Positions 7,268 through 10,367 of a stretch of 64,000 nt of DNA are shown here, piece by piece. Made by a program: the position numbers and the translations under genes. The notes beneath the pieces are model-generated. The model saw only the letters and a list, made by a program, of their open reading frames with translations. It ran no database searches and was not told where the DNA came from. Source of the stretch: Promethearchaeota archaeon (lineage in GTDB: Archaea; Asgardarchaeota; Lokiarchaeia; Sigyniarchaeales; SOKP01); NCBI GenBank assembly GCA_030603385.1, contig JAUVXW010000006.1:85220-149219 (forward strand). Direction: 5' to 3'. The first letter of the stretch is position 1. Every line of letters starts with the position of its first letter.

Positions 7268-8923
7268 ATGGCAGAATTTGATAAAATTAAAGAAGATATG
7301 GAAGATTGGCAGAATTCTTATCCAACCAAAAAAGAGCGAAGAAAAAGTTTTAAAAATCTTTCTGATATAGAAATTAAACGTCTCTATACTCCAAATGATG
7401 TTAAAGAGCTTAATTATGAACTAGACTTAGGATTTCCCGGACAATATCCTTTTACTCGAGGAGCGTATCCTAATATGTATAGAGGCCGATTATGGACTAT
7501 GAGACAATTTGCCGGTTTTGGAACTGCTGAACAGACTAACAACCGCTATAAATTCTTAATCGAACATGGTCAAACTGGATTAAGCGTTGCTTTTAGTTTG
7601 CACACAATTTATGGTATTGAAGCAACCGATCAAAAGGCTTTGGGAGAAATTGGAAAGGAAGGAGTGGCGATTGATACACTGAAAGATATGGAAACACTTT
7701 TTGATGGTATTGATCTATCGAAGATTAGTACATCCATGACTATTAATGCACCAGCGTCTATTTTATTAGCAATGTACATAGTGACTGCCGAAAAACAAGG
7801 CCATTCTCCTGAGCAATTGAGAGGGACTATTCAAAATGATATTTTAAAGGAATATATCGCGCAGAAGTCATGGATATATCCCCCAGAACCATCGATGCGT
7901 TTAATTGTGGACACGATAGAATACTGTACTAACCATGTTCCACAATGGTATACAATCAGTATAAGTGGATATCATATTCGAGAGGCGGGTTCAACTGCAG
8001 TTCAAGAGTTAGCCTTCACTTTGGCTGATGGTTTTGCTTATGTTGAAGCTGCAATCGAAAGAGGTTTGGATGTTGATGATTTTGCCCCTCGGTTGTCTTT
8101 TTTCTTTAATTCTCATAACAACTTCTTCGAAGAAGTATGTAAATATAGGGCTGCTAGAAGGATTTGGGCTAAACATATGAAAAATAAATACGGAGCAAAA
8201 AAGCCAGAATCCTTGAGACTACGATTCCATACTCAAACAGCGGGGGTTTCTTTAACTGCCCAAGAACCTGAAAATAATATGGTGAGAGTAACACTTCAGG
8301 GTTTAGCTGCTGTTTTAGGAGGGACTCAATCATTACACACGAATTCTTTTGATGAAGCTTTATGTCTTCCTACTGAAAATGCTGTAAAAATAGCATTAAG
8401 GACACAGCAAATCATCGCACACGAATCAGGAGTAACTGATACAGTTGATCCCTTAGCTGGATCTTATTATGTGGAATGGCTTACAAATAAGATGGAAGAA
8501 GAAGCTGAGAATTACTTTCAGCAGATTGATGAATTGGGAGGGGTTATTCCTGCAATAAAAGCCAACTTCTTTCAAAAGGAAATAGCAAATGCCTCCTATA
8601 AATACCAACAAGAAATTGAGAACAGAGAAAGAACAATAGTCGCTGTAAACCAATATCAACAAAAAGAACCATGTACGATCCCTTTATTGAAAATTGATGA
8701 GGAAGTTGCGAAAGAACAGGTGAATACATTAAATAAAATAAAACAGGAACGAGATAACGATAAGATTCAAGAAAATCTATTAAAATTGAAAGAAGCCGCT
8801 AAAGGAACAGAAAACTTAATGCCTTATATTATGGATGCTATCAGAGTTTATGCCTCTATTGGAGAAATTATTAATACATTAAAAGAAGTATTTGGAGTAT
8901 ATTTTGAAGACTCGATTTTTTAA
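7268..8923 (+). CDS. B12-dependent acyl-CoA mutase large (substrate-binding) subunit, isobutyryl-CoA mutase-like
   Basis: PGQYPFTRG, WTMRQFAGFG, QNDILKEYIAQ, ISISGYHIREAG and QSLHTNSFDEA motifs. Phe/Gln occupy the positions that are Tyr/Arg in methylmalonyl-CoA mutase. Confidence 0.92.
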   Translation: MAEFDKIKEDMEDWQNSYPTKKERRKSFKNLSDIEIKRLYTPNDVKELNYELDLGFPGQYPFTRGAYPNMYRGRLWTMRQFAGFGTAEQTNNRYKFLIEHGQTGLSVAFSLHTIYGIEATDQKALGEIGKEGVAIDTLKDMETLFDGIDLSKISTSMTINAPASILLAMYIVTAEKQGHSPEQLRGTIQNDILKEYIAQKSWIYPPEPSMRLIVDTIEYCTNHVPQWYTISISGYHIREAGSTAVQELAFTLADGFAYVEAAIERGLDVDDFAPRLSFFFNSHNNFFEEVCKYRAARRIWAKHMKNKYGAKKPESLRLRFHTQTAGVSLTAQEPENNMVRVTLQGLAAVLGGTQSLHTNSFDEALCLPTENAVKIALRTQQIIAHESGVTDTVDPLAGSYYVEWLTNKMEEEAENYFQQIDELGGVIPAIKANFFQKEIANASYKYQQEIENRERTIVAVNQYQQKEPCTIPLLKIDEEVAKEQVNTLNKIKQERDNDKIQENLLKLKEAAKGTENLMPYIMDAIRVYASIGEIINTLKEVFGVYFEDSIF

Positions 8924-8937
8924 ATTGGTGAAATTAA

Positions 8938-9367
8938 ATGTCTAAAGATAAAATAATAAAGGTTCTTGTATGTAAGCCTGGGCTTGACGGGGGTTTTTAG
9001 AGCCTCCGGGCTTAACGGGCATGATAGAGGAGCCAAAGTTTTGGCTAGAGCTTTAAGAGATGCGGGAATGGAAGTTATTTATACAGGTATCCATCAAACG
9101 CCTGATGACATCGTTAATACTGTCATCCAAGAAGATCCTGATGCAGTAATGTTAAGTATATTATCAGGATCTCATAATGCTCTTTGTCCTATTATTATGC
9201 AAAAACTTAAGGAACAAGGTATCGATGATGTCCTTGTAGCTGTTGGAGGTATTATCCCTGATGAAGATAAACCTTTCTTAGAGGAACAGGGTTTGAAGGG
9301 ATTTTACGGACCAGGAACTAATTTGAGTACGATTGTTGAATTTGTGAAAAACAACTTAAAAAGATAA
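8938..9367 (+). CDS. Acyl-CoA mutase small, cobalamin-binding subunit; spliced gene join(8938..8986,9015..9367), 133 aa
   Basis: GGTGA 6 nt before ATG 8938. Exon 1 reads MSKDKIIKVLVCKPGL plus one G. Removing 8987-9014 gives ...[29 protein letters not shown]... with an intact DxHxxG, and 49+353=402 nt. The ORF-track call (8966, MYVSLG...) has a non-homologous N-terminus. Confidence 0.88.
8987..9014 (+). other. Putative 28-nt bulge-helix-bulge (BHB) intron in mRNA
   Basis: Outer helix GCCTG(8976-80)/CGGGC(9016-20). Central 4-bp helix GGCT(8981-84)/GGCT(9009-12). 3-nt bulges TGA(8985-87) and TAA(9013-15). Inner 8-bp stem CGGGGGTT(8988-95)/AGCCTCCG(9001-08) with loop TTTAG. Cuts after the second nucleotide of each bulge restore the frame and the Asp codon. 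Confidence 0.82.
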
Positions 9368-9374
9368 CAAAATA

Positions 9375-10367
9375 ATGGATTACTCTGATTTAACTAAAAG
9401 CTTAATAAAAGGCAATACTCGTGCTGCGGCAAGGTTAATTACTATTGTAGAAAATGATATCGAAGCTGCTGAAGAAATAATAAATTCTATTTATCAGTAT
9501 ACAGGTAAAGCCTATATTTTAGGTGTAACTGGATCACCTGGTAGTGGGAAAAGCACTTTTATTTCAACATTAACTAAGAGTTATATTGACTTAGGTAAGA
9601 AAGTTGGAATTATTTGTGTTGATCCGACGTCTCCTTTAACAGGAGGAGCATTATTAGGAGATAGGATTCGTATGAAACAATATTTTTCATTAGATAATGT
9701 TTTTATTAGAAGTATGGCAAATCGAGGACAATTGGGTGGGTTGGCGAGAGCAACTGAAGATGTAATCAAAATATTAGATGCTTATGGATGTGATATAATA
9801 ATTGTTGAAACCGTCGGTGTTGGACAATCTGAGGTTGATATCTTTAAATCTGCTCACACGGTGGTGGTTTTAGTAGTTCCTGGATTAGGAGACGAAATTC
9901 AAGCAATTAAAGCAGGTATAATGGAAATTACTGATGTTTTCGTTGTTAACAAGATGGACTTGCCTGGAGCAGATAAAAAAGTGGCTGATATCATGCAGAT
10001 GCTAGAATTTAAAAAGAGTTATAAATATGAATCTGAAGATATCAGTGATAAATTTGCCAAAATAAATCAATGGACACCAGAGATCACGAAAGTTAACTCA
10101 AAAACAGGAGAAAATTTTGATAAGCTACTCAAACTGATAAATAAACACAAAACCTTTTTACAAGATTCAGGAGTTATCTCAAATTATATGAAAAATCGAA
10201 TTAAAAGCGAAACAATCCAGATTTTAAAATATAAATTAACCAAAAAAGCCGAAGAATTAATAAATTCTAATAATAAAATTGAGGAATTTATTGAAAAAGC
10301 AATTAAAAAGTCTTTGGATCCTTATTCTTTAGCGGGAGAAATTTTAAAACTCTTTTTTGAAAAATAG
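9375..10367 (+). CDS. meaB: MeaB/ArgK G-protein chaperone of B12 mutases
   Basis: GSPGSGKST, VDPTSPLTGGALLGDRIRM, VETVGVGQSE and NKMD motifs; directly downstream of the mutase subunits. Confidence 0.95.
   Translation: MDYSDLTKSLIKGNTRAAARLITIVENDIEAAEEIINSIYQYTGKAYILGVTGSPGSGKSTFISTLTKSYIDLGKKVGIICVDPTSPLTGGALLGDRIRMKQYFSLDNVFIRSMANRGQLGGLARATEDVIKILDAYGCDIIIVETVGVGQSEVDIFKSAHTVVVLVVPGLGDEIQAIKAGIMEITDVFVVNKMDLPGADKKVADIMQMLEFKKSYKYESEDISDKFAKINQWTPEITKVNSKTGENFDKLLKLINKHKTFLQDSGVISNYMKNRIKSETIQILKYKLTKKAEELINSNNKIEEFIEKAIKKSLDPYSLAGEILKLFFEK

Follow-up and report, generated by a model that had tools for sequence, protein, structure and literature searches.

A predicted bulge-helix-bulge intron in the B12-binding subunit gene of an acyl-CoA mutase from an Asgard archaeon

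In the source genome (G000), a 28-nt insert with the fold of an archaeal bulge-helix-bulge (BHB) intron interrupts the gene for the small, B12-binding subunit of a split acyl-CoA mutase. Comparison with related alleles makes it very probable that the tRNA-splicing enzymes excise this insert from the mRNA and ligate the ends. The mutase intron is thus supported as a new gene and a new phylum for a known kind of element, for which the comparative support is strong and splicing is the predicted outcome. The relatives of G000 are named Promethearchaeota (Asgard) metagenome-assembled genomes, which bears out the probable Asgard host proposed in the initial annotation of the window (the whole stretch of 64,000 nucleotides analysed here).

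All features of the mutase operon lie on the forward strand of the window. The operon consists of the large (catalytic) subunit gene (7268-8923; PF01642, E = 6.5e-228; TIGR00641, 787 bits), the small subunit gene, and the gene of MeaB, the mutase-associated G-protein chaperone (9375-10367; PF03308, E = 4.2e-86; TIGR00750), in this order. A Shine-Dalgarno-like GGTGA (8926-8930), which was read directly from the sequence and is kept in many intron-less orthologues, lies upstream of the small-subunit start. Exon 1 (8938-8986) contains 16 codons and the G of an Asp codon, and its N-terminus is identical in intron-less strains; the intron (8987-9014) is delimited by its fold and by inserts of 26-28 nt at the same site in 10 other alleles; exon 2 (9015-9367) contributes the AC of the Asp codon and continues with G-H-D-R-G to the stop codon at 9365-9367 (PF02310, E = 3.8e-21; TIGR00640, positions 14-128).

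When left unspliced, exon 1 is translated from ATG 8938 as M-S-K-D-K-I-I-K-V-L-V-C-K-P-G-L-D-G-G-F, and then the frame ends at a TAG inside the insert (8998-9000). As read from the sequence, the frame of the B12-binding domain picks up at 9017, with a shift of +1 relative to exon 1. The start codon behind GGTGA, the TAG, and the change of frame had all been pointed out in the initial annotation and were found where it had placed them. Removal of 8987-9014 joins G to AC, creates an Asp codon and restores P-G-L-D-G-H-D-R-G; the cobalamin-ligand motif DxHxxG is whole only once the 28 nt have been excised.

The gene shows the features expected of an acyl-CoA mutase small subunit, including a B12-binding Rossmann domain, the DxHxxG motif, and a position beside the large subunit and MeaB; the substrate may be methylmalonyl-, isobutyryl-, or another acyl-CoA. 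Exon 2 corresponds to the C-terminal B12-binding domain, and its match to TIGR00640 begins at profile position 14, indicating that about 13 N-terminal profile positions are absent from exon 2. The closest solved structures are 2yxb and 4r3u (2-hydroxyisobutyryl-CoA mutase small subunit), both of which align from the ligand loop G-H-D-R-G, and PDB 2yxb was aligned to exon 2 from residue 30. A second, uninterrupted mutase small-subunit paralogue with 46% identity is encoded elsewhere in the genome (G000:C32:34583-34927, L002), and is present in most members of the genus as well.

The ViennaRNA minimum-energy fold of 8970-9026 is a strict hBHBh' (helix-bulge-helix-bulge-helix) motif, which consists of a 5-bp and a 4-bp helix, a 3-nt bulge, a 9-bp stem with a 3-nt loop, and on the return strand the 4-bp helix, a second 3-nt bulge and the 5-bp helix (-23 kcal/mol; z = -2.5; 1 of 200 shuffles equally stable). 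The outer helix h pairs 8976-8980 in exon 1 with 9016-9020; the central 4-bp helix H pairs 8981-8984 in exon 1 with 9009-9012 in the intron; the intron forms its own hairpin h' at 8988-9008, with a stem of 8-9 bp and a loop of 3-5 nt. Each bulge (8985-8987 and 9013-9015) sits 3' of its strand of helix H. According to the rule that the cut falls between the second and third bulge residues (PMC2738675), the predicted cut sites are 8986/8987 and 9014/9015. The hairpin had initially been drawn with an 8-bp stem and a 5-nt loop, which is the same helix minus one pair, so the BHB fold described there and the minimum-energy fold agree. A 12-nt direct repeat with one mismatch (8980-8991 and 9008-9019) flanks the hairpin in G000. 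When the complete genome was scanned on both strands, 18,326 strict hBHBh' motifs were recovered, about the chance expectation, among which the mutase motif is the most stable (-21.5 kcal/mol vs. -14.1 kcal/mol for the runner-up).

G000 is a metagenome-assembled genome (3.9 Mb in 58 contigs) with 7% estimated contamination, and public data contain insert-bearing and insert-free strains together, both of which could favor an error of assembly or sequencing, or the fusion of two strains into a chimera. However, an independent public DNA run gave a 128-nt contig across 8919-9046 with 0 differences, and the same 28-nt insert was found, letter-identical, on three further public contigs from other samples; the insert was confirmed as real DNA by these data. 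In addition, six other species and four metagenome contigs carry different inserts at the same codon. The probability of an artefact is accordingly next to nil.

The comparative analysis covered 54 species genomes of the genus, 38 of which possess the orthologue. An insert at exactly the same codon was found in seven of these 38: that of G000 is 28 nt long, and those of G058, G067, G045, G020, G011, and G022 are 26 nt long. Four more insert alleles were recovered by a pattern scan of metagenome contigs, giving 11 alleles in total, while none of 11 order-level orthologues outside the genus carries an insert. In the alignment of the 11 alleles, 98.4% of the 187 cells that make up 17 base pairs are standard pairs. 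Helices h (5 bp) and H are paired in 100% of cells and helix h' (8 bp) in 96.6%; when the register is slid by 1 to 3 columns, pairing falls to 13-58%. The two 3-nt bulges and the 4 bp between them keep an invariant geometry in all 11 alleles.

Compensatory double changes affect seven of the 17 pairs (17 cells), of which the intron hairpin contains six and helix H one. The change in helix H is found in G058, which has GACU/AGUU there instead of GGCU/GGCU, a compensatory replacement of G-C by A-U. The covariation score was reached by 0 of 500 shuffles, a count which overstates the significance, as does the Fisher test given below, since the alleles are related and do not represent independent samples. 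Helix h and most pairs of helix H lie partly in constrained coding sequence, so their invariance alone says little. The alignment of orthologues, which had been suggested initially as a way to look for compensatory changes, revealed that the BHB structure is kept in the 11 alleles while the intron sequence drifts.

The bulges carry a further regularity. Bulge 1 has G as its second base in 11 of 11 alleles, and bulge 2 has A as its third base in 11 of 11, followed by C, so the cut rule gives GAC in every allele, while the other bulge letters vary between alleles. In G011 and G022, where a G follows the 5' cut, no other cut in the same frame yields Asp. The initial proposal that exactly 8987-9014 is excised to give DxHxxG agrees with the strict fold, with the 11-allele covariation, and with a database protein (P0128) that is identical to the predicted spliced product of G000.

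Translational bypassing was also considered as an explanation of the repeat-flanked hairpin. In gene 60 of phage T4, ribosomes bypass a short untranslated gap that holds a hairpin within the coding sequence, with matched take-off and landing codons and an adjacent stop codon. In the mutase gene, take-off at the Leu/Gly codon and landing on the 3' copy of the repeat would yield an Asn form, N-x-H-x-x-G. The hairpin gap is flanked by the 12-nt repeat in G000, as it is by repeats in some other mutase alleles, and Asn is natural at the same position in some intron-less orthologues. However, the matched codons and the adjacent stop are not conserved in the mutase alleles: matching take-off and landing codons are absent in G058, landing in G022 and G067 would replace the Asp of the ligand triad by Tyr, and the take-off codon is not followed by a stop codon. 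Bypassing also has no need of two 3-nt bulges at an exact 4-bp spacing, yet this geometry is invariant and helix H covaries. Bypassing is therefore considered extremely improbable.

The exons next to the intron differ between alleles with and without it. Helix h is complete in seven of seven intron alleles but in only five of 32 intron-less ones (Fisher p = 5e-5, with the reservation that relatives are not independent), and this difference is made entirely by synonymous codons, which are GC-rich in the intron alleles although the genome is AT-rich. Between G000 and its nearest species, the intron-less G019 (99% protein identity), four of the ten exon bases adjacent to the intron differ, compared with 3.3% upstream overall. 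In the seven intron-bearing species, exon 2 has a mean pS of 0.66 and pN of 0.05 (pN/pS 0.07), indicating purifying selection, and the start codon, exon 1, and the full frame of exon 2 are intact wherever the contig permits.

These patterns bear on the possibility that the carrier genomes have a small-subunit pseudogene in decay, in which the insert would be an inert lesion and the hairpin incidental. The unspliced frame does stop at the TAG, an uninterrupted second B12-domain paralogue is available on C32, and the orthologue is wholly absent from many relatives. However, purifying selection on exon 2 at pS 0.66, the intact start codon and exon frames, and a BHB structure upheld by compensatory changes and synonymous exon codons would not be expected of a dead gene, which makes decay very unlikely. 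The selection instead identifies the intron-bearing copies as working genes, and this implies that the gene is functional in the intron-bearing lineages and that the insert would be removed before translation.

According to another explanation, the hairpin may have a different role, for example in attenuating translation or in binding a protein, while the protein is made from an internal start at TTG 8966 or in two pieces. Gene callers do annotate a 133-residue product which starts within exon 1 and continues across the insert in the frame of exon 2. However, that product swaps the first beta-strand (K-V-L-V-x-K-P-G-L-D) for residues that vary between alleles and replaces the Asp by Asn or Tyr; the insert is either 26 or 28 nt long, so the read-through frame differs between alleles; and exon 1 retains its own start codon and ribosome-binding site as well as a conserved sequence. 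Such a role is distinctly unlikely, and under the splicing model the automatic gene call (8966-9367 of the window) exposes a systematic annotation error, in which callers start at the TTG within exon 1 and read through the intron. Several public 133-residue proteins named 'cobalamin B12-binding domain' (P0001, P0132, and P0134) begin with 17 spurious residues and carry Asn where the ligand triad has Asp.

The splicing enzymes are encoded in the G000 genome. Two paralogues of the EndA family were identified (198 and 200 residues; PF01974, 99 and 71 bits), as well as RtcB (PF01139, 558 bits). The EndA paralogues map to the regions C44:18795-19019 and C9:36254-36502, and RtcB to C39. The closest PDB relatives of the EndA paralogues are archaeal EndA chains, namely the catalytic subunits of crenarchaeal heterotetramers for one and the M. 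jannaschii enzyme for the other. A strict BHB motif should be a substrate for any EndA type. With the geometry, helices h and h', a predicted functional joined product, and EndA and RtcB in the host, the mutase insert shows the features of a BHB intron that can be read from sequence.

The proposed mechanism consists of several steps. Exon 1 would pair with exon 2 in the pre-mRNA through helix h; the 3' end of the intron would pair with exon 1 through helix H, while the intron forms its own hairpin h'; two 3-nt bulges would thereby be exposed on opposite strands. Then, the tRNA-splicing endonuclease EndA would cut after the second base of each bulge; RtcB would ligate the exons, and the 28-mer would probably be circularised. 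The Asp codon of DxHxxG (G|AC) would be rebuilt, and a normal 133-residue subunit could be translated. Three metatranscriptome runs cover part of the stretch, and their contigs lack the 28 nt, one of them as a loose end. The RNA-library contigs at the site are about 4% or more diverged and have AT-rich junction codons, which correspond to relatives that are intron-less in DNA too; the missing 28 nt in these contigs therefore carry no information on splicing. In two of the metatranscriptome runs (X15 and X17; window 8500-9600), mutase-operon contigs of 1.1-1.9 kb from intron-less relatives were found. This hints that the mutase operon of intron-less relatives is expressed in sediments, where DNA carry-over in the RNA libraries is possible.

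The nearest precedent is the intron of crenarchaeal cbf5 pre-mRNA (Watanabe 2002; Yoshinari 2006; Yokobori 2009, PMC2738675), which is likewise a short BHB intron inside a coding sequence. As the initial annotation correctly stated, the cbf5 intron splits an Asp codon, and it does so at the same position of the codon as in the mutase (PMC2738675). The same cut rule applies to it, and its patchy occurrence among relatives, shared by the mutase intron, was read by the authors as gain and loss (PMC2738675). The mutase intron also breaks the frame at an essential codon (TAG, +1 shift, Asp split as G|AC) in the manner of cbf5, although it is not located in cbf5 of Desulfurococcales or Sulfolobales, so it represents a different intron with a similar working. 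There are other differences: cbf5 encodes an RNA-modification enzyme (pseudouridine synthase) and the mutase gene a subunit of a metabolic B12 enzyme; the host belongs to Promethearchaeota (Asgard) rather than Crenarchaeota (Desulfurococcales or Sulfolobales); the mutase motif is a strict canonical hBHBh', while most cbf5 motifs were described as unconventional, in hosts that have hetero-oligomeric EndA (PMC2738675). Splicing of cbf5 was shown by cDNA and in vitro cleavage, whereas splicing of the mutase mRNA is predicted from comparison.

According to a previous study, no pre-mRNA splicing had been confirmed for archaeal genes other than cbf5 (PMC2738675). CircRNA-seq together with cleavage in vitro later showed that EndA acts on an mRNA of Haloferax volcanii, HVO_1309, at a 46-nt BHB intron (PMC7714728); this intron lies in the 5' UTR and leaves the frame uninterrupted (PMC7714728), unlike the mutase intron, which breaks it. 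Besides that 5' UTR intron, cbf5 was named as the one other mRNA case in 2020 (PMC7714728), and an EndA paper of 2025 cites only the cbf5 papers for pre-mRNA. In the open-access literature, no report of a BHB intron in a mutase gene or in an Asgard mRNA was found, in line with the initial annotation, which knew of no description for an acyl-CoA mutase gene; an unindexed report is possible. One paper mentions both methylmalonyl-CoA mutase and BHB and reports no mutase intron (PMC3082918). Papers up to 2025 cite a single archaeal coding sequence that needs tRNA-type splicing, crenarchaeal cbf5, and one Haloferax 5' UTR.

The BHB introns of archaeal tRNA and rRNA share the geometry of the mutase motif and are presumably processed by the same enzymes. 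The spliced mutase junction would form a 5-bp stem with a 7-nt loop, with the intron after loop base 6, like position 37/38 of tRNA. Unlike in tRNA and rRNA introns, the mutase exon arms are also under protein-coding constraint, and the host RNA is an mRNA, so splicing must precede or compete with translation. In eukaryotes, HAC1 and XBP1 mRNAs are cut at paired stem-loops by protein only and joined by a tRNA ligase (RtcB in animals), with a change of frame. However, their nuclease is Ire1 rather than the tRNA endonuclease, and they act as a stress-regulated switch. With the mutase gene, mRNA splicing by proteins alone would reach the lineage nearest to eukaryotes, through a strict-motif, strongly covarying case in a metabolic gene. 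It also offers a small, defined substrate for testing, with 28 nt, predicted cut sites, and intron-less sister strains as controls.

The distribution of the intron is patchy. On the gene tree, the seven intron-bearing species are scattered, and at least 24 contigs of close strains encode P0128 in one uninterrupted frame. Nine of ten fetched P0128 contigs have the AT-rich junction of the G019 type, and the tenth is L188 (Logan SRR29278625 contig, 5463 nt), in which the intron is precisely absent (L188:1530-1560) and the GC-rich exon arms are kept; over 3.3 kb, L188 and G000 share 97.9% identity. L188 may have lost the intron precisely, may predate its insertion, or may be a transcript; the contig spans convergent genes and probably represents genomic DNA. 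The alleles thus form a series, with the intron present, the intron precisely absent and the arms intact, and the arms relaxed to AT-rich codons. As far as these sequences tell, the series fits a recent loss and may also reflect a recent gain. Such a presence/absence series in near-identical strains could reveal how these introns come and go.

Five intron-less orthologues of the genus have Asn where DxHxxG normally has its conserved Asp, namely L018 (G024), L119 (G056), L008 (G012), L127 (G043), and L122 (G062), and Asn also occurs at this position in three database protein clusters, P0065, P0103, and P0104. If an intron allele lost the sequence between its two half-site repeats by deletion, the product would be exactly the DNA seen at this site in G024. 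G062 is the sister of the intron-bearing G067 on the gene tree.

A tentative possibility, to which we give a rather low probability, is that the mini-intron is in active turnover instead of being a frozen relic, and that synthesis of the B12 mutase is then gated by the tRNA-splicing machinery. Under such turnover, a hairpin resembling an anticodon arm may gain the intron by reverse splicing or recombination, and loss may be either precise (through cDNA of spliced mRNA) or imprecise (through deletion between half-site repeats, leaving Asn). The scattered lineages, the precise absence in L188 and the repeat-deletion product in G024 fit turnover without proving it. If true, it would place a gate similar to that of HAC1/XBP1 in a relative of the eukaryotic ancestor.

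We also searched the G000 genome for further introns, and no second convincing mRNA intron was found among strict hBHBh' motifs, to which the scan was confined. Filters for frame fusion, for long open frames on both sides, for codon-usage score, and for short introns with good stems were applied in turn, and no filter separated real excisions from decoys with cuts shifted by 1-2 nt (e.g., 495 vs. about 500; 28 vs. about 26). The codon-score filter discarded even the mutase intron, and energy ranking was the sole informative criterion. A BLAST search of the mutase intron against its own genome found no further copy, no Rfam match was obtained at the locus, and ARAGORN detected no tRNA in the 64-kb window.

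Finally, the only uL11 gene of the genome is also interrupted (G000:C41, about 67721-68150, minus strand; L138:1640-1740). A 37-nt break with an in-frame TAA follows ...V-T-G-G, and the sequence resumes with N-A-S-G-G-P-P-I-G-P-A. The insert lies inside a long, strong hairpin (z = -3.5), and the minimum-energy fold shows no strict BHB, which makes uL11 at most a relaxed case of such an intron. In the whole 3.9 Mb genome, ARAGORN identified 18 tRNA genes, seven of them with introns, and many other tRNA genes are probably too interrupted for recognition or unassembled. These numbers fit a preprint according to which Asgard tRNA genes are heavily interrupted (bioRxiv 10.64898/2026.10.13.758758).
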